A DNA stretch of 64,000 nt from a virus: the IMG/VR virus record IMGVR_UViG_3300030106_005394, positions 1-64,000 of that record. One strand, written 5' to 3'. The notes under the pieces were generated by a model, which saw nothing but the letters and a program-made list of their open reading frames with translations, did not search any database and had not been told where the DNA came from. Both the position numbers and the translations under genes were made by a program. Shown piece after piece: positions 6,054 to 47,300 of the stretch. How positions within the stretch are numbered: the first letter of the stretch is position 1; each line of letters starts with the position of its first letter.

Positions 6054-6710
6054 ATGTCGATGGGCTTTCTGCCTTTTCTGGCTCCTTTGGTGGGGGCTAT
6101 AGGTAGCGGACTGGGAGCTGCGGCTGGTGGCCTTGGGAGTGCGCTTGGCGGGCTAGGAGGAGCTGCTGGTGGACTAATGAAAGCTGGCGGTGGATTATTG
6201 GGTAAGGGACTTGGGGGAATAGGTAAGACTCTATTTGGTGGTGGACTAAAGAGCGGAAGCTCAGGTTTATTTGGAAGTTTACTTAAAGGAGGAAAGCAGT
6301 TGTATGGTGGGCTTGACACCATGTCAGGTGGACTTCTACCCGGCGGGCAGTCTCCTTTTCAACAGGGTGGACTCTTTGGTGCCTTCAGTAAATCTCCTAC
6401 TGTTGCCGATACTAGACCTTTTGTGTCTCCGTCAAAACCAAACATAGGTAATATGGGTGTTGATTTTTATGGCAAAGAGATGGTTGGTTCTCCAGTGCCT
6501 AGGCAAAATAATATTTCAGGTCTACTAGGTGGACCACTTGGAAAGGCATCTATGAATACTGCCTTGGATGTACTTAAACAAAGATATAGACCTCAGCCAG
6601 CTCCTCCCCCTAGCTCGTATGACCCTAGGAGGGTTGGTTATAGCTCCGCACCTCCAGCGGCTGGACCCGAAAGTGGTCGAGGTGCACTATTTAATAACTT
6701 CTCAGCATAA
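6054..6710 (+). CDS. Glycine-rich putative virion/ejection (pilot-like) protein; start 5994, 6054 or 6060
   Basis: GFLPFLAPLVGAIGSGLG...GG-rich amphipathic N-terminus; the ORF-track start 5910 lies upstream of the promoter. Confidence 0.65.
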   Translation: MSMGFLPFLAPLVGAIGSGLGAAAGGLGSALGGLGGAAGGLMKAGGGLLGKGLGGIGKTLFGGGLKSGSSGLFGSLLKGGKQLYGGLDTMSGGLLPGGQSPFQQGGLFGAFSKSPTVADTRPFVSPSKPNIGNMGVDFYGKEMVGSPVPRQNNISGLLGGPLGKASMNTALDVLKQRYRPQPAPPPSSYDPRRVGYSSAPPAAGPESGRGALFNNFSA

Positions 6711-10117: not shown

Positions 10118-10299
10118 TTACACTCCACCATTCTATATACTGGTACAGCCGTGTACGTCTCGCCCTCATGTGAATACTCTACTACATCCTCCCCAAAGAT
10201 GTCCTCTGACATATTTATCACATTGACATCGCTTAATCGCAACCACTCCCCGTGCAGATTAACAAATGCAACAGACTCAAGCTTCTTCACTTCGTGCAT
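10114..10299 (-). CDS. Hypothetical protein
   Basis: Small overlapping ORF in the operon. Confidence 0.55.
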   Translation of the reverse strand: MHEVKKLESVAFVNLHGEWLRLSDVNVINMSEDIFGEDVVEYSHEGETYTAVPVYRMVECK

Positions 10300-10609
10300 T
10301 TGGTCTATTATCTATAAAGGTTCCGTGTTTTGCTGAATCCAGTAGTATGGCACAGCTTGCCGCAATGTGAGCCAAGTGACATTCGCCCGTTTCCTTATCA
10401 AGGTCTTCTCCGTCAATCCAAGCGTCTATGTGTCTTCTCATTGCACCCACATAAGTCATTGCTGATATTCTTGATCCTCTTCGCCAGTTCCAAGCACCAT
10501 ACTTCTTTGCGCCAGAGGCAAGGGCAAATGCCATTGCCTCATTAAGTGCTGGAGGTATCAAGTGTAAGGGGGGCTTTTTGGATGCAGCGTGCTGCTTAGG
10601 GTCGCTCAC
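10277..10609 (-). CDS. dATP/dGTP diphosphohydrolase domain protein (DUF5664-like)
   Basis: KPPLHLIP...GAKKYGAWNWR...AMRRH...GED.D.ETG..HLAH. Confidence 0.85.
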   Translation of the reverse strand: MSDPKQHAASKKPPLHLIPPALNEAMAFALASGAKKYGAWNWRRGSRISAMTYVGAMRRHIDAWIDGEDLDKETGECHLAHIAASCAILLDSAKHGTFIDNRPNARSEEA

Positions 10610-10869
10610 TTCTTCTTGGCCTTTCTTGCTGCCTTCTTTAGTCTATTGTCTCTTTTGTCGATGAACTCCTGCCACTTATCCCTTGCAGATAATGCATCCT
10701 CTAGGGTCATGCCAGCATGTTCGGCAGGAAAACTAGGTTCCCCCTTTAGGTGTCTCTCTCCGACTGCACCCCATTTCGCAGACATAATCCTTAAGTCCCA
10801 AGTGCTTGGGTCCTTATAGTTGGGCACAAGAAGGACGTCCGTCAGTTTATAATCACTGGAACTTTGCAT
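10606..10869 (-). CDS. Hypothetical protein
   Basis: 87 aa overlapping ORF in the operon. Confidence 0.6.
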   Translation of the reverse strand: MQSSSDYKLTDVLLVPNYKDPSTWDLRIMSAKWGAVGERHLKGEPSFPAEHAGMTLEDALSARDKWQEFIDKRDNRLKKAARKAKKK

Positions 10870-11062
10870 GCAATGTGCTGATTAGCTCAACCTGCATTTG
10901 CAAGGCTGCCTCAGTCATATCTTGCTTCTCAATCCACAGAGCATAGGCATCAATGTGCGATGCTATATTCCTGTAAACGTCTCCTATTGCTTTGAATCCG
11001 TCGATGACTTGTTCTTTAGTAGCCACTCCAGATGTTGTTTTACTATCCTCAGATGCCGACAT
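10853..11062 (-). CDS. Hypothetical protein
   Basis: 69 aa ORF in the operon. Confidence 0.5.
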   Translation of the reverse strand: MSASEDSKTTSGVATKEQVIDGFKAIGDVYRNIASHIDAYALWIEKQDMTEAALQMQVELISTLHAKFQ

Positions 11063-11289
11063 TGCTTTTTGGGTTTGATGTTATTATTCAGCTTGGGTCG
11101 TATGTTAAAGCTGAAATACTCACAAGAGCACTCTCCGTAACCATCGTACTCTTCTAAATCTACTAGGTGGACGTTTTCGTTTCGGGTTAAGCTTTTAACT
11201 AGGAATCGGTATGGTGGATCAAGAACTTCTACTTTCATCCTCTTCATCATCTCGATTCTTTTCGCTTTTGCCAAATTCGAAATCACCAC
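10984..11289 (-). CDS. SWIM-type zinc finger protein
   Basis: ECSCEYF...CRH (CxC-xn-CxH). Confidence 0.7.
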   Translation of the reverse strand: MVISNLAKAKRIEMMKRMKVEVLDPPYRFLVKSLTRNENVHLVDLEEYDGYGECSCEYFSFNIRPKLNNNIKPKKQCRHLRIVKQHLEWLLKNKSSTDSKQ

Positions 11290-11407
11290 GCATTGGCTTA
11301 CCTCCCCTTTTGGCCCAAAACTTTTCGTATCCCTCGTCTATCATTTTAGCGGTCTCTGACCACCATGACTCAGGGAGAGAATATAAATCTATCTCATCCC
11401 TGTTCAT
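11219..11407 (-). CDS. Hypothetical protein
   Basis: 62 aa ORF directly after ssb. Confidence 0.5.
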   Translation of the reverse strand: MNRDEIDLYSLPESWWSETAKMIDEGYEKFWAKRGGKPMRGDFEFGKSEKNRDDEEDESRSS

Positions 11408-11421
11408 GGCAGCCCTAAATG

Positions 11422-11745
11422 CTATTCTTCCTTTTTCCCGCCTAAGAACCGAAACTCTCTTGCGCGAAACTTGGTTATAGTCCTGTTGTTTCCCTCCTTG
11501 TCCTGATAGGTCTGTTGATCGACGTTTCCCTCAATAAACACAGGCTCACCTTTGGAGGCCATGCAGATGATGTCTGCCAGCTTTCCCCACGCCTCACAGC
11601 GAAGGAACTGAACCTCATCTTCTCTTTCGTTCACCGCAATAGTGAACTCCACTTTTGTGATTTCTCCATTTTCAGAGTTAATCGCTCGCTTTTCTGGGTC
11701 AGCCGTAAGGTTGCCCATGATTACTACTTTAGCGTATCCTTTCAT
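11422..11745 (-). CDS. ssb: Single-stranded DNA-binding protein (OB fold only)
   Basis: MGNLTADPE, F.IAVN, CEAWGKLA, KG.PVFIEG, YQDKEG. Confidence 0.93.
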   Translation of the reverse strand: MKGYAKVVIMGNLTADPEKRAINSENGEITKVEFTIAVNEREDEVQFLRCEAWGKLADIICMASKGEPVFIEGNVDQQTYQDKEGNNRTITKFRAREFRFLGGKKEE

Positions 11746-13088
11746 AGTCCGAATCTAGTTTGGGTTGTTGTTTTTGGGATGTCTTGTTCTTCTGAACCAT
11801 CATCATATGGTACGAATCTTTGGACTTCCCTTTGAAAGTTTAAGTCTGCAAATCCTTGTTGTCCGTTTCTGTTTTTAGCAACAGAGCACCTGACCAAGTT
11901 TGGGCTGCTTTGCTCCTCTGGTCTCCAGAGCATAAGGCAAACATCGCAATCTTGTTCAAGCTGTCCACTTTCTCTTAGGTCTGATAATTTAGGTCCTCTC
12001 TGAGCAATCTCGCTCTGTCGATTTAACTGACATAGCAAAAGGATTGGAATGTCAAGCTCCTTGCATAAGTTTTTAATAGAATTGGACATTTCTGCTACTT
12101 GTTGCTCTCTAGGGATGCGAGGATCTCTTGGTCTCACTAGCTGGAGGTAGTCAATTATTAGGAACCCAAGCCCACTACTCTTCAGTCGCCGTGCTCGCGC
12201 TCTAATCTGAGCAACTGAGGGAGAAGGTGTTTCATCAATCCAGAAGGTAGAGTTCTCTAAATCTTTCTCAGCTTGATCTACTGCTTTCTCTTGGTTTTCA
12301 GTAAGCAAACCATCAACCATAATATCTGCTTTCACGTTCGCCAAGGAACAGACCATTCTCTGCATTAGCGAATCTGCCGACATCTCAATGGATTGATACA
12401 GCGTAGGGATATTATCCTTTAGTACCGCTTGCAGGAAGCAATGAAGTGAGAATGCAGTCTTTCCTACGCTTGGCCTTGCAGCCAGTAGAGTCAGCTCATT
12501 CCTCTTAAATCCTTTTAGCCTCACATCCAAGTCACGTATTCCAGAAGGGATGCCGCTTTTCCCTTGCGCTTCCTTCAGCCTAGCAATGGATGACTTTGCT
12601 ATCTTAACAGCCTCAGAGCTATCGTGGAAGTATTCATTCCTGCATCTCTCCTTGGAGATTTGCATTACCTCGTTATCTACTGTATCCAAGATTGTTTCTA
12701 TCTGGATTCGTTGCTGTGATATGGAATCCAGAGTCTGATTACATAAAGCTCTCAGCTTTCTTGATGCAGAGTCATTCTCTATGATCTCGGCCCACATATC
12801 GAAGTGTAAGCTCGTCTCAACTGATCCACTTATTGAATTTAGTGTGGCAAAGTCTATTTCATCTGCCCAACCAAGTTCCTTGATTCTCTCAAGTAGACTT
12901 AATTCATCAATCTCAGGGGAGGTATCCCAGAGGGATAATAGAGCCTTGAAGATCATTTGGTACTTTAGGTCATGGAAGGATGTGTGATCTATCCTCCTGT
13001 CTAGTGCCCTGCCTATGCAGTCTGGGTCAATTATGCAACAGGCGAGTACGCCTCTTTCTGCGTTTTGGTTGTATGTTGGTTCTGTCAT
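11742..13088 (-). CDS. dnaB: Replicative DNA helicase
   Basis: AARPSVGKT, IIDYLQL, LCQLNR, LSDLRESGQLEQD.D, KNRNG. Confidence 0.97.
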   Translation of the reverse strand: MTEPTYNQNAERGVLACCIIDPDCIGRALDRRIDHTSFHDLKYQMIFKALLSLWDTSPEIDELSLLERIKELGWADEIDFATLNSISGSVETSLHFDMWAEIIENDSASRKLRALCNQTLDSISQQRIQIETILDTVDNEVMQISKERCRNEYFHDSSEAVKIAKSSIARLKEAQGKSGIPSGIRDLDVRLKGFKRNELTLLAARPSVGKTAFSLHCFLQAVLKDNIPTLYQSIEMSADSLMQRMVCSLANVKADIMVDGLLTENQEKAVDQAEKDLENSTFWIDETPSPSVAQIRARARRLKSSGLGFLIIDYLQLVRPRDPRIPREQQVAEMSNSIKNLCKELDIPILLLCQLNRQSEIAQRGPKLSDLRESGQLEQDCDVCLMLWRPEEQSSPNLVRCSVAKNRNGQQGFADLNFQREVQRFVPYDDGSEEQDIPKTTTQTRFGL

Positions 13089-13768
13089 GATAGTCCTTTC
13101 TCTTCTAGGTATTCGATTCTGTAAACGTCTAGGTTTGTAGCTTTCTCAAGCCACCCCTTTTCTTTCATCCACTTAATGAAGTCTTTCTCTGGGAATTCAA
13201 CGGAAGGCGCAGGTATTCCCTTTCCCTGCAACCAAGTTCTGCAAGCATTTCTCCAAGTTGCATTCCAGTCGGCATAAGCCTTACCGCTTCCAATTGCCCA
13301 ATTCTTGAAGAACTCAATTGCTCCTTCTGGGTCAAGGTTATTTTCGGAAGCATACTTAGGGTCACTGGGCTTCCAGTTTTCCTTCATTTTTGATCTTCTG
13401 CCTTTGATGGTTCCTTTTGATGGTTCTTTATAAAGAGAGGGGGTGTCCTGTGGGACACTACCCCCCCTGTCCTGTGGGACACCCCTGTCCTGTGGGACAC
13501 CCCCCTCGCCCAATGGAGAAACTTGGTAGACGGAAGTCTCTAATCCGCCTCCAACAGATAGCCTCTCTAGAAGTCCCTTTGATTCCAGCTTCTCAATTAG
13601 CTTAGTCACTGATCTCCTCTGGACACGAACCTTTTGAGATAGGGTCTTAATTGAGGGCCAGCAAACTCCCTCGTCATTGGCATGGTCGCAGAGCGCCAGA
13701 AGCAGAAGTAGTTCTGATCCAGCCACATCCTCGTTACTCCAAGCCTGAGTCATTAGTCTTATGCTCAC
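13085..13768 (-). CDS. Replication initiator with N-terminal winged HTH
   Basis: LLLLALCDHANDEG.CWPS..TL motif, C-terminal DW.ATWRN motif, internal iterons, directly upstream of dnaB. Confidence 0.85.
   Translation of the reverse strand: MSIRLMTQAWSNEDVAGSELLLLLALCDHANDEGVCWPSIKTLSQKVRVQRRSVTKLIEKLESKGLLERLSVGGGLETSVYQVSPLGEGGVPQDRGVPQDRGGSVPQDTPSLYKEPSKGTIKGRRSKMKENWKPSDPKYASENNLDPEGAIEFFKNWAIGSGKAYADWNATWRNACRTWLQGKGIPAPSVEFPEKDFIKWMKEKGWLEKATNLDVYRIEYLEEKGLS
13444..13500. repeat. Three iterons TGTCCTGTGGGACAC (putative replication origin)
   Basis: Exact 15-mers at 13444, 13468 and 13486 inside the initiator gene, as in lambda O. Confidence 0.85.
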
Positions 13769-14216
13769 CTTTCTGTATCCTTTCTTTTACTTTTTTTACA
13801 ATTTCATCCCAGTCATCATCTAGGGTTATATGAACTCCAGTTCTGTCGCCCCAGCCCTTCATCAAGGTCATCTTCCAAATGATCTGGTCAGATACTAACC
13901 ATCCGCAAGTAACCATTGAGTCAACAAAAATCTTACTCAAGTTATCTAGGTCAGGTTTTGTATACATTGGTAGCCACCCAAGGGTCTTGTTTTTTTGTGG
14001 CTCTGATTTCCTCCAAGGCCAAGTAAATGCAACCTTCAGAGTACACGGCTTAGAGAATGGTTCCTCTGGCGCATTAGGGGCAAGCAGGGATACCCAAGTA
14101 TCCCTGCAAGCCACTCCACGCTTATCCTTAAACATCTTACCATCTTTGGTAAAGCGCAAGGAGCTTTGTGCTGTAGTCTTTGGAGCTACGCACGATATGA
14201 AAACGTCATGCTGCAT
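13734..14216 (-). CDS. rusA: RusA-family Holliday junction resolvase
   Basis: TKPDLDNL.K...D.....W..SD..I. Confidence 0.88.
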   Translation of the reverse strand: MQHDVFISCVAPKTTAQSSLRFTKDGKMFKDKRGVACRDTWVSLLAPNAPEEPFSKPCTLKVAFTWPWRKSEPQKNKTLGWLPMYTKPDLDNLSKIFVDSMVTCGWLVSDQIIWKMTLMKGWGDRTGVHITLDDDWDEIVKKVKERIQKGEHKTNDSGLE

Positions 14217-14970
14217 CGGCTAAAACCATTTTGTCCATTACTTTGGTTAGTAGATGCGTCCTGTCCTGCATTGTCGGGTATGACCATTTTTTGGCTACTT
14301 CCGTGAATGCATTGTACAGGCTCCAACAATCTCTATTTTTGAACGCATCATGCGTTGGATTATAGAAGGTGTTGACCCAAGGCTTCAGCATTGATGGAGG
14401 GATTGCTCCAGCACGCATAGCAACCATTATGATGTCGTGCGCTGTCAATCTATCCAAGGAGTGAGCCTTGTAGGCCTCAACTCGCTTTTCATTTTCCTCG
14501 AACTGCTTATTGAGTTCAGTTATTGCACCACTTAACATCTTAGGCAAGTCCTTGAAGATATTCTTGGTGTGCCTTCGGCCCACTACGATGTTAGCAGAGA
14601 AGCTCAGGTTGTCGCACACGAATACACGATTACCACATCCCATATTCGCCCTAAACTGCATAGTGCTGGAGTTCCTTAAGCCTACAAGCTTAGCCATATC
14701 CTCATGGTTATTGCAGTTACGCAATTCCATAAGGCCAAACATATTATCCTGAGTAAGCTTACCATCTTTCTTTGAAAGAAAGCGTTGTAGGCTAAACTCC
14801 TCATGGACAATTTTGTATCCAGCATTCTCTAGAGCATTCTGCACTTCGTTTAAGAAGTAGTCATGCCGAATGGGATAGTGAGTTTCCGTCATAGGTACTG
14901 GGTTTGTTAGTTTACCGAGTTCCTCTCTTGTGATATGGCGACCGCCACAATGGTTCATGAAACCTTTCAT
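14206..14970 (-). CDS. DUF932-family protein
   Basis: PIRH, LRNS, G.RVFVCDNL.F, RRHT, WSLYNAFTE. Confidence 0.85.
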   Translation of the reverse strand: MKGFMNHCGGRHITREELGKLTNPVPMTETHYPIRHDYFLNEVQNALENAGYKIVHEEFSLQRFLSKKDGKLTQDNMFGLMELRNCNNHEDMAKLVGLRNSSTMQFRANMGCGNRVFVCDNLSFSANIVVGRRHTKNIFKDLPKMLSGAITELNKQFEENEKRVEAYKAHSLDRLTAHDIIMVAMRAGAIPPSMLKPWVNTFYNPTHDAFKNRDCWSLYNAFTEVAKKWSYPTMQDRTHLLTKVMDKMVLADAA

Positions 14971-16103
14971 GATTCGTCTTCCTTCTTTTTAGTATTCTTG
15001 ATTATACGGGCGGTAGATTCCTTAACCTGAACGGCACTAGCCGATTTCATTATATCCCGTAGTTCTTTTTTAGCTTTAGCTGTAGACTGGCCTGTTTTTT
15101 CAGCCCATATCTTAATTAGGTTCCTTTCTTGTAGTTTTACCAGCTTGTCCATCTCTTCGATGTCAAAGCCTCTTTCTCTGAGGATAGGCAGAGCCTTCTC
15201 CGTGTCGTAGGTGGCAATTTTCATGCCCCTACCCAGTTTGTAGCCCTCTACGGACTCAGGGTCGCTTTTAAGCTTATCCCTTACAGTTGACTTCACGCTC
15301 GCTGCGAACTTTTCGTACATTCCAGCCAGCGCATATGCCTTGCCCAGTTCTTCAGGGTCTTTGGATATCTCCTCAATGGTCTTACCCATTATTTCTTCTA
15401 GTAGTTGTCGAGCCTCTGGGCAGAATGGTAAGGCTCTGCAGTATTTGCATTGCTTCGCTCCAGCCACCCTAGGGGCATCGGGGTTTTTGATTGCCTTGGA
15501 CAGCTTATACAATTTACCCGCCCAAGCTTTGACTGTAGCCCTATCGAGCATTGACACCGTATACATCGGATCAAGCAAAGGAGTTACTAGGGCCACAAAG
15601 CACTCCTGTATATTTTTATTCTCCTGCATTACGAGAGCCGCCAGCGTAAACAGCTGAGGGTTTACGTGAGCAGGAGAGTGCTCTCCGTACAGCATCTTGT
15701 AATCTACAATAAGCGCACGTTTATATTGAGGTATTATTTCAACATAGTCAGGTTTACCGCTAAGGAATGGAACGTCATTACTGTCACGTAACCACATCCG
15801 TTGTTCCTTAATCTGATAACCTTCACCCTTTATTGTGCGTTGACGTAGCTCATGTACTGCCAACTTTGAATTTGTGATGGCCCTAGCACGCTCAGGATCA
15901 TCAATCTCGTCAATGGGCATATCCATTTCAGCAAGTGCATGGCGAATTGTGCCTTCACTAGATTCAGAATACTGAATATCTGGCAGTCCCTTCTCCGCAA
16001 GAAACTTACCCTTGCAGAGGAATAGGGACTCTACTCCCGACGCAGAGGGCATACCTCCACGCTCGTCAGCTAGATCATCAGAATGGGAGCTCATCTCCGT
16101 CAT
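14967..16103 (-). CDS. DUF2800/Cas4-like PD-(D/E)XK exonuclease
   Basis: EGT..H, GKPD...IVDYK, NPQL, CKYC...C; adjacent to erf. Confidence 0.82.
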   Translation of the reverse strand: MTEMSSHSDDLADERGGMPSASGVESLFLCKGKFLAEKGLPDIQYSESSEGTIRHALAEMDMPIDEIDDPERARAITNSKLAVHELRQRTIKGEGYQIKEQRMWLRDSNDVPFLSGKPDYVEIIPQYKRALIVDYKMLYGEHSPAHVNPQLFTLAALVMQENKNIQECFVALVTPLLDPMYTVSMLDRATVKAWAGKLYKLSKAIKNPDAPRVAGAKQCKYCRALPFCPEARQLLEEIMGKTIEEISKDPEELGKAYALAGMYEKFAASVKSTVRDKLKSDPESVEGYKLGRGMKIATYDTEKALPILRERGFDIEEMDKLVKLQERNLIKIWAEKTGQSTAKAKKELRDIMKSASAVQVKESTARIIKNTKKKEDES

Positions 16104-16800
16104 CTCCTTCTAGATCAAATGGAAGCTCATCTACCTTCTTTGGTGTTTTAGCTTCCTCTATTTGCTTCTTACCTTCACTTGACGCCGCATCAAGTGCCGC
16201 ACGGAATTGTGGGTTCTTGTTGTCAATGTTATCAATATACCATTGGAGTGACTGTTCTGGCAGGGAACTCAGGGGCTTACCCTTGTTTTTGCCAAACGGA
16301 ACCACGAAGTCGCCCCAGTCGCCAGTTTTATTTAACTCAACAGCTTTTGGTTTTTCAAACCTAGTCTCTTGTTTTTTGGGCTTAGGTTTGCTTGCTGGCT
16401 TTTCGTCTTTTCCGTGAGTATTGACCGCATCAGCATCCTTGCTGTCATCTATTGCGAATAGGCCATTTAAGGCATACTTGCGAGCGTAGGAGCTTGCTGC
16501 TCCCGTACACTGACTAGGTGACATTCCCTTGAGACTGCCTTCTTGCGCCCAGCCTACGCTTGAAACGCTCTCGCCGTTTGCGTGTAAGCTGGCTATGGCC
16601 TTAACGTAGGTGTTTCCGTTTATATCATAAACCTCATCACTTAATGTGACTGCAGCTTTATGCGTTTCCAGTAGGGGCTTGAGTGCCTCAAGTATGTCCT
16701 CACAGCTCCTGTAGTTGTACCCGCCAAACTTATTTGTCTGTCCTTTGGGCGCGTTTAGCTGGCTCTGTATAAAGCCAAGCGTTTCTAGTGCTTCATTCAT
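16078..16800 (-). CDS. erf: ERF-family ssDNA annealing protein with a C-terminal PFGK-type domain
   Basis: APK.Q.NKFGGYNYRSCEDI, GAASSYARKYALNGLFAIDD.KDAD. Confidence 0.93.
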   Translation of the reverse strand: MNEALETLGFIQSQLNAPKGQTNKFGGYNYRSCEDILEALKPLLETHKAAVTLSDEVYDINGNTYVKAIASLHANGESVSSVGWAQEGSLKGMSPSQCTGAASSYARKYALNGLFAIDDSKDADAVNTHGKDEKPASKPKPKKQETRFEKPKAVELNKTGDWGDFVVPFGKNKGKPLSSLPEQSLQWYIDNIDNKNPQFRAALDAASSEGKKQIEEAKTPKKVDELPFDLEGDDGDELPF

Positions 16801-16852
16801 TTTTACCTTCCTTTTGAGATTATCGGCTAAATCGGTTCGCCGAATAAACTGC

Positions 16853-16880
16853 AGTTTTGTGAATTAATCCTCGACTGCAA
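16853..16880 (-). promoter_or_regulatory. Putative promoter of the replication operon
   Basis: TTGCAG-N16-AAAACT upstream of erf. Confidence 0.4.
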
Positions 16881-16934
16881 GTTTTTTCTGAAAAAAAATT
16901 AATTGACAGGATATGTGCGTATACCTGACACTCC

Positions 16935-16997
16935 ACGCACATCTTCCACGTGCCCCTCGGTAGGTTCTTATCCTTTCTTCCTGCCGAGGGGTTTTTT
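16935..16997 (+). ncRNA. Candidate antisense sRNA / terminator hairpin with a 15-nt pyrimidine loop
   Basis: 12-bp stem 16953-16964/16980-16991 plus U6; TTGACA at 16903; loop complementary to the initiator RBS at 13771-13786. Confidence 0.6.
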
Positions 16998-17039
16998 ATA
17001 GTTGACTGACTAGTGTCTTTTGGTTTTGGGTTTTAATCT

Positions 17040-17306
17040 ATGGACAGCGATACTGCGGACTTGATACAAAAAACAGTAAACCCACTTTTATCCGAGTTTC
17101 TTGACGGATTCATAATAGCAGGAGTTAAGGCTGGCACAGACAAGAAGGTGATATGCATTAAAATGCCACCTCCTCGTCCTGCTAGAGGGTATGAAGACCC
17201 AGACTTCTATCACAATGACGAGCCTTACGTAAGAGCCGAGGATAACTTTTTGCCCCTATTATCATGTATAGAGGAGTGGGCTGAAATAAATATAGATTTA
17301 GAATGA
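17040..17306 (+). CDS. Hypothetical protein
   Basis: First ORF of the plus-strand operon. Confidence 0.65.
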   Translation: MDSDTADLIQKTVNPLLSEFLDGFIIAGVKAGTDKKVICIKMPPPRPARGYEDPDFYHNDEPYVRAEDNFLPLLSCIEEWAEINIDLE

Positions 17307-17659
17307 GCTGGAAATGGTTTGATAAGTACCCACCACCTCTCGTTAGGTGCTTGGCTAGACGTAAGCTATCAGGTAGCCACGTTGTTGCGATGTCTGATGA
17401 AGAGGTAGCCCTGCGGGCAGATATACCCTTACTAAGGATAAAGGAGATATCAACAAAGAATGATTGGAGTGACGTGCCTATAGATGAGGCGAGAAGTTTC
17501 TGCAGTGCATGCAACTTCGATATATTCAATTCTGCAGACAGGAACAGAGCAGGAGCCTACCTTCGAAAAGGCGCTAAGTTTCAGTATTTAAAAGTATCTC
17601 CACACTGGAAGACAACATTCCTCCCATTGATACAAGCCATGAGAAGTAATGCCCAATAG
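17303..17659 (+). CDS. Hypothetical protein, possible HTH
   Basis: SDEEVALRADIPLLRIKEIS resembles an HTH. Confidence 0.6.
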   Translation: MSWKWFDKYPPPLVRCLARRKLSGSHVVAMSDEEVALRADIPLLRIKEISTKNDWSDVPIDEARSFCSACNFDIFNSADRNRAGAYLRKGAKFQYLKVSPHWKTTFLPLIQAMRSNAQ

Positions 17660-18323
17660 GCAATCCATACCGATAGCAGAGCTATCAGAGGCTCTCCGCA
17701 GGAACGAGGGAGATAGGGATGCTACAGCAAAGGAGCTAGGCATTACAAAGAACTATCTTAGTGTCAGAATCAACAAGACACCAGCCCTTAAAGCTCTTTG
17801 GTCTAACACCGAGCCTATTGACCCATCTAGTGCAGAAGCTGAAATTCGAAAGGCTCCACACAAGCCTACGGCTGATCCAATATCGGATAAGCGAAGTCTG
17901 GAGGTTTGGCAGAAGAACGGAAAAGATGTCTTCATGGAAGAAATCTCTTCTATGCTACATAACAAGGATAACATTGCGAAGCTGGACATATTTAAGGGCT
18001 TTGAGGGCAATGTTGGACTACATATGGCCAGAGCCTTGGAGATGACCCAGAATGTGAATATGCGTCAGAACGTAACACTTTTTGAGGTAGCAGAGAACCT
18101 GAGAGATCAAATACTGAGCGGAGCCTTAGATGAAGAGTCCGAGATTATGAAAACCAGACTTTATGTATCATGCTGCGAACAGCAGGGTAAGTTCTACGAC
18201 AGGCTACTTAGGGGACTGGAGGCCATGCTCAAGATGACCGAGAAGGAGGCTGGCAAGAAAAAGAAGAAGGCTGGGTTCCAGCCACTGTCAGAATTACAAA
18301 AGGCTGAAGATGCAGAAGAATAA
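17649..18323 (+). CDS. Putative terminase small subunit (Fis-like HTH)
   Basis: EALRRNEGDRDATAKELGIT HTH; helical; upstream of terL. Confidence 0.55.
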   Translation: MPNRQSIPIAELSEALRRNEGDRDATAKELGITKNYLSVRINKTPALKALWSNTEPIDPSSAEAEIRKAPHKPTADPISDKRSLEVWQKNGKDVFMEEISSMLHNKDNIAKLDIFKGFEGNVGLHMARALEMTQNVNMRQNVTLFEVAENLRDQILSGALDEESEIMKTRLYVSCCEQQGKFYDRLLRGLEAMLKMTEKEAGKKKKKAGFQPLSELQKAEDAEE

Positions 18324-18501
18324 GCAGATACAGCAGTTCTTAACTCAGTCAGATATAATTAATGGATTCTGGGAGGAGTTTGAGGCTAAGCATGAAACCC
18401 AGAAAGAGGAGCACCCTTGGAAACTTAAATACTTTGTTGCTCTTGCATTCGCAGAGGGAGTAGCGATGGGTATGAAGAATGCCAAAGCAGAAGAAAATTG
18501 A
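18310..18501 (+). CDS. Hypothetical protein
   Basis: 63 aa ORF overlapping both neighbours. Confidence 0.55.
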   Translation: MQKNKQIQQFLTQSDIINGFWEEFEAKHETQKEEHPWKLKYFVALAFAEGVAMGMKNAKAEEN

Positions 18502-20017
18502 TACAGCCGCAATTCTTAATCGCTTAGGCGACTTACAGGATGACGAGAAGAAGGAGACAGAGCCATGGCTCCCATCACTTTCTAAGACCCAAAGGGAGAT
18601 ATTTGACGACTCCTCAAGGTACATACTTGCTTATGGCGAGAGAGGTACTGGAAAGACTTATGTACTGGGTGGACACAAGCTCGTACGCCATTGCTATGAG
18701 AACTTTAATGCTCTAGCTCTTTGTGTAGTTGGCGTTAAGTCACAGGCCACCATGGGTGGGGTCTGGCATAAGCTTCAGACTGAGATACTGCCCCTGTGGG
18801 CAGAGGGCCTAGGTATAAACATTACCGAGGAAAGAAGGGACGAGCAAAAGAACTTATATGTTGATGTAGAGAATAGGTATGGTGGATACTCTAGGGTTGT
18901 AGTAATATCTGTTCCATATGGAGCTTTTATACGAGATAGGATAAAAGGGTTTGAGCCATCTTATGTATTTATTGATGAGCTTACTAACTTGGATACCGAT
19001 GATTACTTTAATGCGGTAGTACAGCAGATAGGTAGACGTCCGGGTATTCGTGGGCCACAGCAATATACTGCCGCATGCAACCCTGACGGCCCATCACATT
19101 GGGTATACAAGAGGTTCTTTGAGATACCTTATAATGACGAGGGGGAGTGGAATGACGATTATTCCGTGTACCACCTCAAGATAGAAGAGAATAAGGACAA
19201 CCTACCCAAGGGATACTACGATAATGTCATGGAGGCTGTGGCCGATGATCCTATCGAAGAGGCCCGAATGATTCGCGGTGAATGGATAGATAGACCGCTG
19301 GGAGATGCTATATTTAGACCCTACTTCCTAGAAAACATACATATGAAGGGGGATGCCAAGCATGACATACTCCCTAACCCAAAGTACCCGATAATATGCG
19401 GATGGGATCCGGGTGCCGTAAATAACGCCATCATATTCCTTCAGTGCTTAGTTGGTTCAGACAAGACTATATGGTTATGTTTCGACGAGATGATATGGAT
19501 AAATGAGAAGATGCCTTACACTGCCATGATACCAAAGGTCATGAGACAGATGAGGTATTGGAATAATAAAATGGACACCAAGTTTACCTTTGAGCACATA
19601 AGTGATAACTCGGCATTCAATCAGTTTAGGGCTAGGAGCGGAAGTTACGATGTGAGGGATATTCAGCAAATATCAGCCGAAAAGGCCGAATCCTTTGACA
19701 TGGAGTCCATAAGAATGAAGGCCGCCCCAAAGTTTTCTGGTTCCGTCGAGGCTAGAGTTAGGCTTATGATCTCAAAACTACAGCAAGAGGAGTTTATGCT
19801 TTCACATAGGTGCTCAAATATTAAGAAGATGTTTTATAGTCTTGTGGCCGAAAAGGGCAGGTCTGGCAAGTATGACCCATCATTGCCATTTAAGCCAAGA
19901 AGGAGTGTGTACATACATGGATTTGATGCCCTTACATATCCTATGCTTTATTATAACGCAGGCGCAATGATGCCTACCGAAAGAGCAGCATCTGAAATAA
20001 TTGAAGTCGGTGCTTGA
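18479..20017 (+). CDS. terL: Terminase large subunit
   Basis: Walker A GERGTGKT, Walker B VFIDE, CNP...HW, nuclease GWDPG and HGFDALTY. Confidence 0.95.
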   Translation: MPKQKKIDTAAILNRLGDLQDDEKKETEPWLPSLSKTQREIFDDSSRYILAYGERGTGKTYVLGGHKLVRHCYENFNALALCVVGVKSQATMGGVWHKLQTEILPLWAEGLGINITEERRDEQKNLYVDVENRYGGYSRVVVISVPYGAFIRDRIKGFEPSYVFIDELTNLDTDDYFNAVVQQIGRRPGIRGPQQYTAACNPDGPSHWVYKRFFEIPYNDEGEWNDDYSVYHLKIEENKDNLPKGYYDNVMEAVADDPIEEARMIRGEWIDRPLGDAIFRPYFLENIHMKGDAKHDILPNPKYPIICGWDPGAVNNAIIFLQCLVGSDKTIWLCFDEMIWINEKMPYTAMIPKVMRQMRYWNNKMDTKFTFEHISDNSAFNQFRARSGSYDVRDIQQISAEKAESFDMESIRMKAAPKFSGSVEARVRLMISKLQQEEFMLSHRCSNIKKMFYSLVAEKGRSGKYDPSLPFKPRRSVYIHGFDALTYPMLYYNAGAMMPTERAASEIIEVGA

Positions 20018-39885: not shown

Positions 39886-41382
39886 ATGGCAACCCTACTA
39901 GAGCAGATTTCCAATAGGGCAGCTTCTGCGCCGCAGCAAAAAATACAGACCATCGACCCCAACAGGTTGATGCAAAATGTAATGAGCATGGAGCAGGACT
40001 ACCGCATGGCACAACTCAACAGCCAATACGAGAGTGACCGCATGCGTGCCAAGGCTCACATGGATCAACTCATGACCCTACAAAGGGATAAGAAAAACTT
40101 CAAAAGGGAAAGAAAGCTAGCACGTGAATCCGACAGAAATAAGGCCATAAGTGGTTCAATTGGGTTGGCCGAGCAAGGCTATGGATCAGCCCCCTTGGGC
40201 ATGTCCCCAGAGCAGTCTACTCTATACTCACAAGCTTCGTTAAAAGGAGCAGAGGCAAAGAGCCAGAGAGAGGGTCAGGGAATGTTTGCCGCAAATCTAT
40301 ATAAGGAGATGGAGGCCTACAATCCAGCCTTATACCGAGAGCAGGTCACAGATAGTATTTACAGCGAAATGGCCACCCCAGAAAAGGTGGACGAGTGGCT
40401 GACATCCAAAGAGGGCAGAGCATATCAGAGGACTCCAGAGTATGCTAACCTGAGGATGCAAGGAGGCGCAGACGGAGGAGAGGTCCCAATGGGAGTGCCA
40501 CTTCACCCAAGCTCTCCAGCCTTTAAGATGCTTCAGCGCAGATATATAGCGAGCGACCCAATGATTCAAGCCCAAGCGGATCAAGCAATACTTAGTATTG
40601 CAGGGGCTAGGGAAGCGAAGCACATGTCCCAGACCAATCAATTTAATACCCTTACAAATGCTGGGGTAAATTGGTATCCATATTATAATGCTCAACCTCA
40701 AGCTGGTCAGGATAACCCACTCTTGCCTCAAGGTAAAAATGAGGACAGCGAATCTAAAACCGAAGGCTCAGGAGGAGGCTCTGAGGAAGAGGAAGAAATG
40801 AACCCGATACTGGGAGGAGCACTTAGGGCTGCTGGTACTGGAGGATTAGCTTATGGTGCTGGAAGAATGACCACAACTCCATATAGGGCCGCTACATCAA
40901 CCTTATACGGAAGACAGCTTAGCACGGAATTAAAGAGAGCCACCAATAATTTAGCCAGAACACCATCATTGCAATGGAATACTCCACGATCAGCTGCTGG
41001 GCCAAACCCAGCCTTGGCGAAAGCACAAAGCGAGATTGACTCTGTAATGAAGTCCCAGAGAAGCCTACTCAAGGCAAATGGGGTTCAGGACGTTGCCCAG
41101 TTAAGCAACCAAGAGGTAACCGAACAACTCAAGCAGATGGTTGAGGACGGCAAGATAAAGAAGATACCTAAAGCTGATAAGGCACTTGCTAAGAAGCTTG
41201 GGAAAGGGGTATTGAGTTCCGTATGGAAAAAAGCTTTAGCCGCCGTAGGTGGCGCCACAGCAACTGGTGCATCTGGCGCGAACCCTTGGACAACAGCAGC
41301 AGGATTTATAGCAGGACTAGGCATGGCCGCATGGACAGTCCATGACGTTTACGGGATAGCAAAAGACTTAATGAGTGAATAA
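39886..41382 (+). CDS. Putative ejection / internal virion protein
   Basis: Helical with Gly/Ala hydrophobic C-terminal segments. Confidence 0.6.
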   Translation: MATLLEQISNRAASAPQQKIQTIDPNRLMQNVMSMEQDYRMAQLNSQYESDRMRAKAHMDQLMTLQRDKKNFKRERKLARESDRNKAISGSIGLAEQGYGSAPLGMSPEQSTLYSQASLKGAEAKSQREGQGMFAANLYKEMEAYNPALYREQVTDSIYSEMATPEKVDEWLTSKEGRAYQRTPEYANLRMQGGADGGEVPMGVPLHPSSPAFKMLQRRYIASDPMIQAQADQAILSIAGAREAKHMSQTNQFNTLTNAGVNWYPYYNAQPQAGQDNPLLPQGKNEDSESKTEGSGGGSEEEEEMNPILGGALRAAGTGGLAYGAGRMTTTPYRAATSTLYGRQLSTELKRATNNLARTPSLQWNTPRSAAGPNPALAKAQSEIDSVMKSQRSLLKANGVQDVAQLSNQEVTEQLKQMVEDGKIKKIPKADKALAKKLGKGVLSSVWKKALAAVGGATATGASGANPWTTAAGFIAGLGMAAWTVHDVYGIAKDLMSE

Positions 41383-44300
41383 TGTCAGATACATATGGAC
41401 AAACCAATCCCTACACGCAGAGGTACAGGGTACAGCTCAAAGCGCAAGGGGTGGATACATCCCAGCTATCTGATGACACACTTACGTTTAGGTTAGGCAA
41501 GCGCCTAGAGTCTGAGGGCAAATCGCTCTCTAAAGTCGGCGGTGATGCTTTCCAGAAGCAATATCTCGACATAAAGAATCGACCAGCTCCTGACATGCAG
41601 GGGCCATTAGCTCTGCCTAAAGAGCTATATCGTGCTGGCAGGATGTCTACGATAGGTATGGCTGGTAGTGGCTTAAGTGCATTAGGTCTAGTAGCAGATC
41701 AGATACCTGTTGTTGGTGACGATTTGAATGCTTGGATGCAGGAGAAAGCTAATGCCCTCAGGGCCGAATCAAGTAGATATACTCCTACAATTACAAGACC
41801 TACCGATATTAGGTGGAACAAGCCTGACGAGGCTATGCGTGGTGCAGCGTCTATTGCAGGACAGGCATTTCCTTCATTGGTGCAAGGTCTGGTTGCCGCA
41901 AGAACTGGAGCTGTCGGCTCAAAGGCACTAGCAAAGACACTAAGTAAGAGAATACCAGAGGGAAAGAAGGTCACTAAGAGAGTAAAGGGAACCTACGTTC
42001 AAAGGGACGCAAGAGAAGACTTTATTGAGAAGATGGAGATGGGCGGCATGTATGCGGCTACAGCTCTAAATAGTATTGGGATGAATGCGGGAGAGATTTA
42101 CAGCTCCCTATACGACAGCACTTTACTACCTGAGAGCGACCCAGAGTATGTTGATCCAGTAGATGCACGTAATGCGTCTATGGTCGGAGGAGTTATTTCT
42201 GGCTCTGCGGACTTCGTATTGCCTTCGATGATAATGAGCAAGTTCCTGAGGAATACAGGTCCAAAGGGTAAGCATTATTGGTCTAGATTTGTACAGTCAC
42301 TACCTAGGAACATAACACTTGAGGGTGGAACTGAAGGCTTCCAAGAGCTCGTCAATATGATGAGCGAGAAGTACGCCAAGGGTGAGCCTATGGACTGGAA
42401 GCACATGACCAGCTCGGAGCGAATGAGGCTTGTAGATGCTGGTATTCTAGGTGCAGCAGGCGGTGCACAGGCAACACTTATAGAGGCTTTAGCCCAGCCA
42501 GAGGAAAGGCCCCTTAGCTCCGTTATGGCGAAGGAGCTTGAGGCTAGAGTGAAGCAGGGGAAAATAGATCAGCAACGCAGACTTGAACTCGCAGACGCAA
42601 GGGAGACTTCTCGTATAGGCAGAATCTTTAAGAAAGGGGAAGCCATACTTGACACAAGCACTGGCAAGATAGGCACATATAATCGGAGACTATCGGAAGA
42701 CTTTATAGAGATAGAAGCAGACGGGCAAAGCCAGACAGTACCTATATATAGGGCGGTAAAGGCAGTACCCGAAAATCAGCAATCACAATTTGAGACAGGT
42801 GATTATGTAACCTTCTCTGATATAGACGTCCCTGAGCAGGGCGGAATCATAACTAGCATCAGTGGCAATAGGGCCAGCATAGACGGAATAGACTTTGATG
42901 TAGAGCTAAGTAAGCTAAACAAGGTTGCCAGTAAGAGAGAGAACGAGCAAGATCGTGCGCTCCAGAATCTATCTAAACGCACAAGGAGCGGAAATATTGC
43001 GGCAGCAACAGTAAATAAGATACTTAACTCTGGGCTTACAATCGACCAGCTAAAGGGAACGACCGCAGAGGGAAAGGATTTTGAGGTCGTTGAGCAAGGC
43101 GGTAAGTATAAGTACAATCTATCATCCAAGAAAGCCAAGCCAGTAGATGTCAAAGTTGATCCGCCAACAGCCGAGGTTCAGGTACCCCAGAGCGATATAA
43201 ACGCCTATGTAACATACGCTACGGATTTCATTAACAAACTAAAGGAGAAGCCGAATGCCGATCTTACTGGAGATTACATATATAACATAACCCGAAAATC
43301 CTTCATGAATAAGTACATGAAGGATAAGGGTGTTGATGCTCAAGTTGCCAATAATATCTGGCAGCAGTCGAACAGTAACGGGATCGCATGGAACCTTAGG
43401 GAGCGTGGAATACTTAAGGGGATCAGGGTCAGTGGAGAGACTGCTGGAGAGCGATTAATTGCAGACACCAAGGAGAAGCTTGGTGACATAAGGAAGGAGT
43501 ACAACCTAAAGAAGGGTGTTATTGCGTACAATGGCAACCTTGGTGTTACTGGGAGGCTCAATGAATCTAACGGGAGAGTTGAGGTACATTACATTTCCGA
43601 TGCAATAATACAGACTAGACAGGTAGACGTTGGTGATATTGAGAAAATTAAATCAACAGGGGATAAGGCATCAATCAAGAGGCTAGGTTTTGCCCTGCAG
43701 CAGCAAGGCATTGAATCCTACAGGGAGCACATGGATGAAATCCTCAGGCTTCAAGGCAGGACTGATAAGGATATAGAGTCTAAAAAAGAAGACGTTACTC
43801 GCAGTATTGAAGAGGAAGGGAATAGGCAGGCTTGGTTGAGTTATGTTTCATCGCTTGAGTCAAAGATAAGTGAGGATGAAACCAAGCAGAGGAACGGGAA
43901 GGGATTTACGGACCCAGCAGGAAATCCTAATGATTTTGGAAGGCATTATTTTGCCAAACAAAACATATCTGATCTTGAAGATTTATATAACGGAACGCTA
44001 CTCAATCTTGGTATATATGGAGATGGGTCCAATAAGGAGTACATAGATGCCTTGGCCTACTACAATATCCCAGCAAGATTTAATGCAAGCGACATAAAGA
44101 AAGTCGCAGATGTAAAGCCATACTACAATATGGCGAGAAGAAGGTTCAAGTACCACCTTAGCAAAACGCAGAAGGAGTGGGAGAGTTTCTTGATTGACCA
44201 ATACAAGGCTGACAAGAGCGACAAGGAGAGGCGGGCAAGGGAGAGTGAAGCCAAGAATGAGAAAGAGAATGAAAGGCGAAAGAAACTTAGTCAGGCCACA

Positions 44301-47300
44301 AAGAATAACACACCCCTGCCTCCTGACTTTGAATACTCAAATGAAATAGTAGGTCGCATTGAGCGTGAGCATTTTTCGGGAGTGAGAGAAGGTCAGGAGG
44401 ATGCTTTGGCCATCATTGATTCAATAAGATCGTTTTTATATAATGATGGTCGCTTTAGTTTCAGTGAAGAGCAACCTGCTCTCACGGGAGACAAAATGAG
44501 ACTTTATCAGGCATTCGATGCCCACATAAGGAAAAATCGCGGAGTCTGGACTCCTCTCGTAGAGGGGCATTGGTACAAAGAGCCTCACTGGGAGAAGTTT
44601 ATAAATTACGCAAGGCAAGAGCCATCCATGAGGGTAAAGGGGCTAGTGTGGGAGGATGGAGATCAAGCATTTCCAAGAAAGCAGAATGCTTCATTAAGGG
44701 CTGAGATTAATCGATGGGGTAGTTTTTATGCATCTTGGGAAGGAACTTACAGGGATGCGGTAAGCACCGCCTTAGGGGAAACTCTTCCAAAGAAGTTAAA
44801 CGTAGAGCAAGCCTTGCTTCATATGGATGAGGATTTCAGTAATTATATTGGAGAAAATACAGACTCTGCTTTAATTCAAGATATCTTAACTGGTGGTGAG
44901 GTAGAGGGAGTATTTACAGGCTTATTCGATAAGCTCATATCTGTTTCATCTGACGCAAAAACGGATTGGGACACAATCGCTAATTTAAGCGGCGGACAGC
45001 AGTACCCAAAGCTTAGGTTTCTTAAAAGGCCAACGAAATACGGCAGCCATAAGGTTGCAAGCATTAACGAAGATGAATTTGCCGAATTGCTGGCCGCAAC
45101 CCAGTTCGATGGCGCAAACACCATGGTGAATGCTTGGGGTAACGCAATAGACATAACGGTAACAAAACAGTACAAGCAGAATACCTCCTTTAAGAATTAT
45201 GTAGTTACAGATAAGGCTTGGGGCAGTGAGGACAGATACTGGCTTGAGGTTCGCAGAGATGGGGGATACTATTATGTTCTTCTTGACTCTGGCAGTAATG
45301 ATCTGCGCAACTCTAAGCGAGGTATAGATTTTACTGAAGAGCAACATAGTACATCCGTACAGCCCGAGACAGATACCATCGAGGAGAGCTTCGATGAGTT
45401 TAAGAGTTACATAGGGACCCTAATAGAAAGTAGTATAGAAGGTCTGGATGATTATGATATCCTCAATCTTGCGGCAGAGGACATAATCAAAAATCACAAG
45501 GATAAGATTCCTAGTATATTAAAGAGAGCTAAGGCCCCTAAGGTATATGATGATTCTGACGGATATGAGGTACTTCCTTACTTTGTAAAACTCCTTGAGC
45601 AAGCCGAGCAGCAGGGCAATCTTCTGGAGTTAGCTAAGGAGCAGGCCAAGAATGTGACCGAGGAACAGCGACAGGACGCATTATTTAGCGAGTTCTATAA
45701 AGAAGCTGGGGATAGGATATCCGAACTAGAAGACGAGCAGGCTGGTGATATCCCGCCCGATATTGGGCTGGCTATTATGGGTGAGGAAAGGCGGGGCATA
45801 CGGGAGCTTTCTAAGGAGTGGGCTGAGTGGTTTGGGCGTTCTGCCTACAGGTATTTACAGATGTCCGTACTTCGGGCCGCTAGGTCAGGAATAAGCCTTA
45901 CTCGAGTATTTGAGGAGTGGTATACGTCCTTGATTAAGTACATATCGACCTTGACCAATACAAACGGGCCTGTGCCTACAGATACCAAGGCAAGGCTCAT
46001 GAAGGTCACAAACTCCGAGCTGTTCTCCGAACTACTAGATGAATTATCCAAGGATAAGGATTTCCTTAGTGAATTAACCCCGCAGCAGCAGCGCAACCTG
46101 AAGGACATAATAAAGTACGGAGATAGCTTTGGATACATGACCAAGGATTCTGTAGTCGATTACTTTGATGTCATAGAGGATCATATGCTTACTCGGATTA
46201 GGGTTGAAGCACTTATATCTGATGGCGATATTAATAATGATCTTATTTCTCAACTACAGGATCAGATTGGCCCCGTAAGTCTTGCTGAAAAAATCAGGCA
46301 ATTACAGGTGGCTGAGGGAACGGGCACAGAGGAGATAGCTTTGCATACAGCCCTAGTGGGAGCAGAGAATATTTACAGCAAGTACAATGAGGCAATAAGC
46401 AAATACGACTCAGTGGAAGATTGGACTGGTACGGAAGACTACAGGAAGCTAAGAGCCGAGCTTCAGGATTCCCTTTACGATAAATATAAGTCAGGTAAAG
46501 GTGTAAATCCTATTGCTGAGCTAAAGGACATTAAGATCCCATTTGGTCAGGCCGATATGTTTGGTGCAAATGAGTTTGATCCTATTAATGCATTCCAGTA
46601 TGAAGACATTGATTGGTTCAATCGACTAGACAATATGGATACCCCAGAGTTTGACTGGGCCTCAATCTTGGGTGCTACATCCTATAACAGGTATCGCATT
46701 GAGAGGGGAGACACGCTTAAGGGTATCGTTAATATGATAGCTGAACAGAGCGGGGGAGATAGGGATAAGATTCGTGATGCGATAATAGAGAGTACCAATG
46801 ATGACTTAAATTGGATACCAGACCCATTAAGGTCACTTAATGATGCAGAGCGAATGACCTATAATGCCCTCAAGGCGCATAGGACTTTTCTTGAGAGCAA
46901 AGTAAGAGATCTTGGCTCCAGTCTCGAACTAGATGAGGCACTAAAGAAGGTCAACAAGCAGATGGATGACCTGACCATAAATGCGGAGAAGCATAACCCC
47001 CAAACTAGGGTAGAGGATTTCGACGGAAAAGCTTGGCACGAGCAGGACATTATCGGCAGTGGTGATAATATAGGTAGATTTATAATAATTCCATCAAGAG
47101 GGGGTTTCGGACAGGCTCTTCTTGATGACATTAAGGCCGCTGAAGACGCAAGGCGTATCGCCATTGAATTTAGTGGCAACGAACAAAAGGCCTTTGAGGC
47201 TCTGATAGCGGAAGAAAAGGCCAAGGAAGCAAAGGCGAATCTTCCGTCCCCAGAGGTACAGAAGTCTGTGGCCATAACAGTAAGGTCTCTTTCTGACGAA

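Follow-up and report, generated by a model that had tools for sequence, protein, structure and literature searches.

A probable terminator-type RNA hairpin with a recurrent pyrimidine loop at the early/late operon border of an uncultured phage

Results

The locus and its genes

The window analysed here comprises the first 64 kb of a 72.7-kb IMG/VR virus record with a G+C content of 46%. The hairpin lies in a 239-bp gap (16801-17039) separating two divergent gene blocks. The minus-strand block opens with an Erf-like annealing protein (annealase; 16078-16800), the first gene of its operon, and continues with a PD-(D/E)XK exonuclease, an unknown ORF, RusA (13734-14216), an O-like initiator (13085-13768, with a GTG start at 13768), DnaB (11742-13088) and SSB (11422-11745). 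The original prediction had named the initiator, DnaB and SSB correctly, and Erf, the exonuclease and RusA lie upstream of them. The plus-strand block consists of ORFs of 88, 118, 224 and 63 aa followed by the large terminase (18479-20017), assigned via relatives that match the query to 84%, and by the structural genes, all of them from 17040 onwards on the plus strand, which places the late (packaging and structural) operon directly downstream of the hairpin. The 88-aa ORF that begins this operon (17040-17306) has no family, and a pattern search found no relatives of it; the 224-aa ORF has a weak HTH_8 match.

Several features of the wider record were noted in passing. The structural block contains a single ORF of 5699 aa (41382-58481, plus strand), neither half of which matches Pfam at E <= 0.001. 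On a rough score against an anti-SD motif, the plus-strand late genes (17040-58907) are mostly without SD-like sequence and have A-rich leaders only, and several of the minus-strand recombination and replication genes (10277-16800) carry SDs of the AGAAAGGA or AAGGAAGG type; this division into SD-poor late and SD-bearing early genes may reflect an SD-poor host or a module of foreign origin. No tRNAs were found in the window, and no phage-encoded ribosomal protein S21 was found. No close relative of the region was found among GenBank phages, and short stretches of Erf are ~80% identical to Vibrio phage erf genes. Contigs with DNA near-identical to 15500-18500 come from several runs of marine metagenomes, produced by different studies. 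One run annotated with an organism, and not as a metagenome, shares 0.67 of words with the same segment, which might point to the host. No RNA run was found to contain this segment.

The intergenic gap and the hairpin

The only promoter-like element in the gap is TTGACA (16903-16908, plus strand), a -35-like hexamer after an A/T-rich run that could belong to the promoter of a putative short plus-strand RNA. Support for the original prediction of a promoter here is weak: an acceptable -10 element is absent, both in the window and in its closest relative (the L082 contig, described below), and a promoter scan did not list the site. The hexamer is followed by an inverted repeat (16913-16942, plus strand) with arms ATGTGCGT (16913-16920) and ACGCACAT (16935-16942), which pairs when the whole intergenic region is folded and is not kept in the relative; it may be an operator, or else form a hairpin at the 5' end of the putative RNA. 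On re-checking, these strings and all others that had been reported for the locus proved correct, as did their coordinates.

The hairpin itself (16953-16991, plus strand) is made up of a 5' arm, CCCCTCGGTAGG (16953-16964), a 15-nt loop, TTCTTATCCTTTCTT (16965-16979), and a 3' arm, CCTGCCGAGGGG (16980-16991), which includes one G.U pair. The stem is 12 bp long, or 13 bp if G16952 pairs with T16992, and is followed by the T tract TTTTTT (16992-16997) and then AT. Further on, a block of TTGACT and TGGTTTT(T)GGTTTTAA (17002-17039, plus strand) leads without an SD into the first ORF of the late operon and is conserved in the alignment of the window with its relative. No iterons or terminal repeats were found at the hairpin site in the window.

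As RNA, the hairpin folds at -26.7 kcal/mol against a shuffle mean of -12.0 (z = -5.8), none of 200 shuffles being as good, and it is retained when the entire intergenic region is folded. The T tract stands 3' of the stem on the plus strand only, and the G.U pair of the stem becomes an A.C mismatch on the opposite strand. The predicted hairpin with its 12-bp stem and U tail is therefore real, and its placement as a plus-strand RNA structure heading the late operon, divergent from the replication and recombination operon, is supported. Its anatomy is that of an intrinsic terminator in having a stable, GC-rich stem and a U tract directly 3' of it (TTTTTT in the window, T8 in the relative). The usual terminator loop is 3-8 nt, and the loop of 15 nt is unusually large, which counts against reading the element as a terminator. 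A terminator scan found just a shorter sub-hairpin (16972-16991). No Q-type antiterminator was found among the 28 window ORFs scanned against PHROGs or Pfam, a set in which many ORFs are familyless and to which the 8.7 kb of the record outside the window do not contribute.

Comparison with Rfam 15 gave no match in the window at the gathering score, the best sub-threshold match over the hairpin being PyrR (23.7 bits versus 54). Across 18 hairpin-bearing loci there was likewise no Rfam match on any hairpin, and elsewhere in these loci just two tRNAs and one match to the tmRNA model were found. The tRNAs are both in locus L207 (10703-10776 and 10949-11020, minus strand); the tmRNA-model match is an 83-nt stretch of L161 (1853-1935, plus strand) scoring 51.9 bits against a gathering score of 47. 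Searched against GenBank phages, the 61-nt window hairpin gave two chance matches only, lineage 1, described below, gave no match and lineage 3 gave one weak match to a Roseobacter phage. A full-text literature search with 10-nt pieces of the loop and its complement returned nothing relevant among the matches listed.

The hairpin in the closest relative

Three of the loci recovered (L002, L082 and L261) belong to one viral contig, which is the only close relative of the window locus. It has the same gene order, with a large terminase 84% and an Erf 66% identical to those of the window. At the equivalent place it carries a hairpin with the stem TCCCTCGTCTTGG/CCAAGGCGGGGGA, the loop TCTTATCCTTTCTC and then T8. 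Nearly every stem position that could change has changed, with pairing kept by compensatory changes, and the two G.U pairs favour the same strand as in the window. The flanks also correspond: a T run and TTGACA (6473-6478, at the equivalent relative place) lie upstream, and TTGACT with a TGGTTTTTGGTTTTAA block lies downstream. A small minus-strand ORF starting after the hairpin is not conserved between the two genomes and was rejected.

More distant relatives of the large terminase, at ~65% identity (L085, L092, L105, L110 and L129), have another layout upstream of the terminase block. There, a tRNA or tRNA-like stretch is followed by a tetraloop terminator, direct repeats in tandem (for example TTGTCAACA) and an ORF of ~340 aa without annotation; ARAGORN calls a tRNA-Arg in L092 only among these contigs. 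By its position the ~340-aa ORF is possibly an integrase, and the whole arrangement, which has no counterpart in the window, could be a module for attachment or integration.

Recurrence of the loop on unrelated stems

Written with its closing pairs, the loop motif is G-K-TCTTATCCTTTCT-Y-CC. The same 13-18 nt form the loop of hairpins on ~13 unrelated stems in viral and metagenome contigs. A 16-nt pattern was found in at least 119 viral stretches, 26 of which, among the matches listed, are flanked by a 7-10 bp stem. An 18-nt pattern, for which the list is complete, occurs in 33 viral contigs and forms a hairpin loop in 28 of them, in four lineages (18 in lineage 1, one in lineage 2, eight in lineage 3 and the L082 contig). 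In metagenome contigs the 18-nt pattern was present in at least 120 stretches, with stems of at least 6 bp on 38 among the matches listed; new unrelated stems of 7 to 22 bp were obtained from L354/L384, L311, L375, L339, L331, L358, L268 and L270. The stems form 13 clusters, two of them variants of lineage 1, with lineage 3 (6 bp on a strict count) additional, and the lineage counts are lower bounds (at least 13). All of these hairpins were collected with the loop as search key, so conservation of the loop is seen only within that key.

Stems are far more frequent around the loop than expected. The 97 unique contexts include 20, 17 and 7 stems of at least 7, 9 and 12 bp, respectively, compared with 1.9, 0.9 and 0 expected when left and right flanks are taken from different contexts. 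None of the 19 folds pairs the loop. In two gap-free alignments, A4 and A5 (nine rows with a 15-nt loop, eight rows with a 14-nt loop), the motif is invariant. Both have 10 of 12 pairs changing on both sides, with 89.8% and 74.0% of cells pairing, respectively, and none of 500 shuffles reached the covariation score. The rows of these alignments were picked for having stems, so it is the enrichment test over the 97 contexts that provides the independent evidence.

The stems also reveal the strand on which the element works. Their summed contiguous length is 127 with Watson-Crick pairs only, 234 when G.U pairs are allowed on the strand of the pyrimidine loop and 131 when they are allowed on the opposite strand; G.U pairing lengthens 13 of 21 stems on the former and 2 of 21 on the latter. 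G.U pairs thus fit the pyrimidine-loop strand alone, which argues that the element is RNA.

A relaxed scan that left the two central letters free matched at least 113 stretches and yielded more long-stem hairpins, with AC, CC, GT, AA, AG or TT in place of AT. The blocks UCUU and CCUUUCU recur while the centre varies, both blocks being held fixed by the search pattern. That matches without a hairpin might mostly be ordinary RBSs on the other strand was not supported, an ATG standing 0-3 nt after the motif in 8 of 85 where 5.3 were expected.

Genomic contexts in other lineages

Wherever the neighbouring genes are clear, the hairpin reads in their sense. In lineage 1, where an M23-peptidase gene closes a block of tail genes, it begins at the stop codon of that gene; 4 bases behind it lies another stem, strong and with a T-rich tail, and then a new block with a RecE-like exonuclease. 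The lineage 3 hairpin follows a phrog_1617 gene, and those of L375 and L268 also come after a gene. In L354/L384 and L331 the hairpin lies between same-strand genes and adjoins exonuclease and Sak4-like genes. L207 resembles the window in having the hairpin between divergent genes, and an operon of ParB-methyltransferase genes follows it. In this lineage only, the opposite strand has a 270-aa ORF that begins immediately behind the hairpin, so that here the strand of the motif is less certain. No gene is common to the hairpin-bearing loci, the neighbouring ORFs being annotated differently or not at all.

By a fixed rule, six of 13 lineages are terminator-like. In four (the window, L082, L311 and L375) this applies to the hairpin itself, and in two (lineage 1 and L268) a stem with a T-rich tail lies within 30 nt behind it; the other seven have neither a T tract on the hairpin nor a terminator-like hairpin close behind. 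L339, L207, L270 and part of lineage 3 look terminator-like by eye only, and L331, L354/L384 and L358 have no terminator-like sign.

Two further observations concern individual lineages. L311 (about 880-1065, in motif orientation) and L339 (about 340-525) are otherwise different contigs that share a block of ~150 nt ending in the motif hairpin; upstream of the hairpin the block contains TTGACA, a second anti-SD-like tract, CACCCTCCTCCTT, and ATTCCACG, which resembles CTTCCACG at 16943-16950 of the window. It may be a larger sRNA gene, and in L311 a 519-aa phrog_850 protein ('RNA-binding protein') is encoded convergent to it. In lineage 3 (L203, L151, L249 and L324) nearly every gene start has an RBS of the form AGAAAGGATAA(N)2-5ATG, and at some starts, for example before a 339-aa ORF, a small hairpin has the SD in its loop and the ATG in its 3' arm.

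Discussion

A conserved-loop RNA hairpin

The hairpin of the window is probably a functional RNA element. We are confident that it is a terminator-type RNA hairpin belonging to a conserved motif, given its fold, its U tract and the recurrence of its loop. The loop has been kept while the stem was replaced in the L082 contig, and it is shared with unrelated phages, which indicates that both loop sequence and structure are under selection. The element is a plus-strand hairpin with intrinsic-terminator anatomy at the border between an early (recombination/replication) and a late (terminase/structural) operon, and it belongs to a motif that recurs in uncultured, mostly marine phages. The stem of this motif varies freely, and a pyrimidine loop of 14-15 nt, (U)UCUUAUCCUUUCU(Y), is kept between GG/CC closing pairs. 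The hairpin may be part of a short RNA of ~60 nt or form the beginning of the late transcript, and would stop part of that transcription; the exposed loop would then contact a partner common to all these phages.

What that partner might be is a matter of weaker preference. As the best overall explanation we tentatively favour a hairpin of terminator anatomy whose recurrent loop meets a common partner, likely an SD-type RNA, while considering this, taken as a whole, somewhat less than probable. The partner would most likely be purine-rich, SD-type RNA segments (AGAAAGG...), making this a general anti-SD or anti-RBS loop; among its several matches in this phage, the initiator start region would be just the best, and not a dedicated, co-evolving target. 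That the loop works by such pairing is a possibility that we put a little lower still. It is our first choice because of the matches to the loop complement and because known sRNAs share its build of hairpin plus terminator. The complement, AGAAAGGATAAGA, reads as an SD with spacer, matches several early genes of the window phage and corresponds to the near-uniform RBS of the lineage 3 phages.

Four results count against anti-SD pairing. The GC-rich lineage 1 has GGAGG-type RBSs that are mostly poor matches, the best duplex being -8 to -9 kcal/mol in two of the four loci tested. In the L082 contig the start regions that rank highest for pairing with the loop are those of late ORFs, not early ones. 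Loops with a variant centre (AC, CC, GT, AA, AG or TT) are not accompanied by matching changes in targets, their own letter pair being the best or tied best in only 5 of 26 loci. Finally, no further copies of the loop or its complement occur in the record beyond chance, with eight sites for complements compared with seven for the reversed control.

Nearly as likely as a general anti-SD loop, if still rather doubtful, is that a conserved host protein binds the loop and modulates termination or 3'-end stability at operon borders. Candidates would be a pyrimidine-binding RNA chaperone, ribosomal protein S1, a cold-shock protein or a termination/antitermination factor. A protein partner would suit a loop that stays the same whatever the RBS type of the phage, as well as a motif in which the two central letters vary between constant flanking blocks, as expected of two contact blocks. 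The frequent position of the hairpin at or near terminators and operon borders and the lack of a co-varying RNA target point the same way. However, no candidate emerged from the loci themselves, which share no gene, nor from the 88-aa ORF without relatives. Possible likeness of the loop to boxA, to cold-shock-protein sites and to T7 primase sites was considered and set aside.

It is also conceivable, if unlikely, that the near-invariant loop mimics the pyrimidine 3' tail of 16S rRNA. Such a mimic might reprogramme translation globally, masking mRNAs that have an SD and leaving late genes without one, like those of this phage, to be translated, or it might serve as a decoy that would draw a host factor or nuclease recognising the 16S tail. 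If this were true, the hairpin would belong to a new class of phage RNAs directed at the translation apparatus and shared by many unrelated marine phages.

The more conservative possibility is that we are dealing with a plain intrinsic terminator or insulator between divergent operons, with a functionless loop whose recurrence is an artefact of the loop-keyed search. The GC-rich stem and T tract would be all that such a reading needs, and the distant large-terminase relatives do have ordinary tetraloop terminators upstream of their terminase region. These lie in another gene context (with the tRNA-like stretch and the ~340-aa ORF) and so are not at the same site. A functionless loop is hard to reconcile with 13-18 identical loop letters on at least 13 unrelated stems, with 17 stems of at least 9 bp where 0.9 were expected, or with a relative that keeps the loop though every changeable stem position has changed. 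We regard a plain terminator as improbable, slightly more so than the 16S mimic.

The match to the initiator start region

The original prediction saw in the hairpin a dedicated trans-acting antisense sRNA, the whole loop of which would pair with the initiator RBS 3.2 kb away and shut off translation of the replication genes as a lysogeny, copy-number or early-to-late switch. The match on which it was founded exists. A plus-strand copy of the loop with one extra G, TTCTGTATCCTTTCTT (13771-13786), corresponds, on the minus-strand mRNA, to the initiator's SD and spacer; it agrees with the loop in 15 of 16 letters and would allow 15 pairs with one bulge. At -15.9 kcal/mol the predicted duplex is the best of 62 start regions, but by a margin of only 2 kcal/mol (the next being -13.9, -13.0 and -13.0). 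The start regions of dnaB, with TCCTTTCT ahead of its ATG (13094-13101), and of ssb, with TATCCTTTC in its first codons (11735-11743), also rank high.

The agreement over the whole loop nevertheless falls within chance by three nulls. With the 8-nt core UCCUUUCU fixed and the seven flanking letters permuted, 3 of 42 sequences equalled or beat the loop; with random flanks around the fixed core, 378 of 1000 did so, and with shuffles of the full loop, 55 of 1000. When both window strands were scanned, two sites away from any gene start reached -16.1 kcal/mol (near 57141-57153, plus strand, and 60876-60888, minus strand). With nulls of 5-38% and two better non-start sites, the match to the initiator does not exceed what chance would give a loop whose core is anti-SD-like. 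Long loop/RBS matches around such a core are to be expected by chance, and evidence of conservation is needed before function is read into them.

Conservation is what the initiator site fails to provide. In contigs of four DNA runs over 13500-17300, no difference in the loop or at 13771-13786 was seen among the matches listed, with cover of the hairpin too thin to weigh on the question. In the L082 contig the loop is kept, but the initiator site on the mRNA strand, GAGAAAGATTAGAAAGGAAAAAAAGTG, forms a best duplex of just 8 contiguous bp at -10.3 kcal/mol and ranks fourth of 15 start regions. A single column does shift in parallel: the final letter of the loop is T in the window and C in L082, and so is the letter aligned with it in the initiator site. 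But that site has also lost a C and acquired a mismatch, and we count this single column as no real covariation. The loop-RBS covariation by which the antisense proposal was to be judged is thus essentially lacking, and target covariation with the loop variants is missing too. Tuning of the loop to this RBS is not supported either, as the loop recurs in ~13 lineages with other gene content and other replication modules. The initiator RBS also lies inside the RusA coding sequence, which constrains the evolution of the site; the RusA ORF overlaps the initiator start by 35 nt (13734-13768). Unlike the hairpin loop, the initiator site is not under selection of the kind described above. The match of the loop to the initiator start site therefore looks incidental, and a dedicated antisense role is very unlikely.

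Least likely of all, by a small step, is a DNA-level element, a single-stranded DNA hairpin for replication, recombination or packaging: five lineages have it beside a recombination module (Erf and exonuclease in the window and L082, a RecE-like exonuclease in lineage 1, exonuclease and Sak4 in L384 and an exonuclease-like gene in L331) and the strand asymmetry would fit single-stranded DNA as well, but T tracts right after the stem and a sense orientation right after stop codons fit RNA 3' ends, and the window site is without iterons or terminal repeats.

If the loop is functional, as our preferred reading of a conserved-loop RNA hairpin would have it, the element is an undescribed structured-RNA motif of uncultured marine phages, without an Rfam family and with an unusual signature, namely a free stem and a fixed 13-nt loop at operon borders. 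It would then offer a handle on early/late timing, or on interference with SD-dependent translation.

Comparison with known systems

The 6S RNA of lambda is a short PR'-tR' transcript. By position, the PR'-tR' transcripts of lambdoid phages are the closest known counterpart of the window hairpin, in that a terminator hairpin heads the late operon. According to PMC7547250, StxS of the Stx phages is a trans-acting sRNA processed from the short PR'-tR' transcript, so that short terminated phage transcripts with sRNA function are known and a terminated RNA of the lambdoid kind can act as a regulator in trans. PMC12197685 likewise describes the trans-acting phage sRNAs VpdS, PreS and DicF. With such RNAs established, action in trans alone is not new, and its use in the original prediction to distinguish the hairpin from known phage RNAs was overstated. 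The window differs from the lambdoid arrangement in having neither a convincing promoter nor an identified Q-type antiterminator gene; furthermore, its loop is a motif common to unrelated phages, and elsewhere the hairpin mostly stands after a gene and not in a leader. No sequence or Rfam relation of the hairpin to the PR'-tR' or StxS RNAs was found.

C/U-rich anti-SD motifs in hairpin loops are known from several bacterial sRNAs, including the alphaproteobacterial CcsR or 'cuckoo' RNAs, the staphylococcal Rsa RNAs and RNAIII, and some sRNAs of this type derive from 3' UTRs. As in these RNAs, the window hairpin has a pyrimidine, SD-complementary motif that is conserved and unpaired in a loop beside a terminator, and that is kept while its surroundings differ. 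The predicted pairing with SD regions is good in early genes of the window and in lineage 3, and mostly poor in lineage 1. The window RNA differs in being a single hairpin with a longer motif (13 nt and more) of another sequence, and in being phage-borne.

P22 sar is a phage antisense RNA, and c4 pairs at or near an RBS. Together with OOP, these are small RNAs that pair with the mRNA of a phage regulator and so block its expression, which is the likeness that an antisense reading of the window hairpin would draw on. They have dedicated targets, whereas the candidate target in the window is not kept in the closest relative and the loop is common to phages with other genes. Lambda OOP and P1/P7 c4 are both mentioned in PMC12197685.

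The hairpins of the window and L082 share with ordinary Rho-independent terminators a GC-rich stem of 12-13 bp followed by T6-T8, and differ from them in a loop of 14-15 nt, where 3-5 nt is usual, and in its conserved sequence. We have not filed the hairpin under the PR'-tR' transcripts or the anti-SD-loop sRNAs because its promoter, antiterminator and targets are not established. Among known systems, then, the hairpin is not supported as a dedicated initiator antisense RNA; it is supported as a terminator-linked hairpin RNA whose loop would meet a conserved partner, which would be either an SD-type RNA or a host protein.
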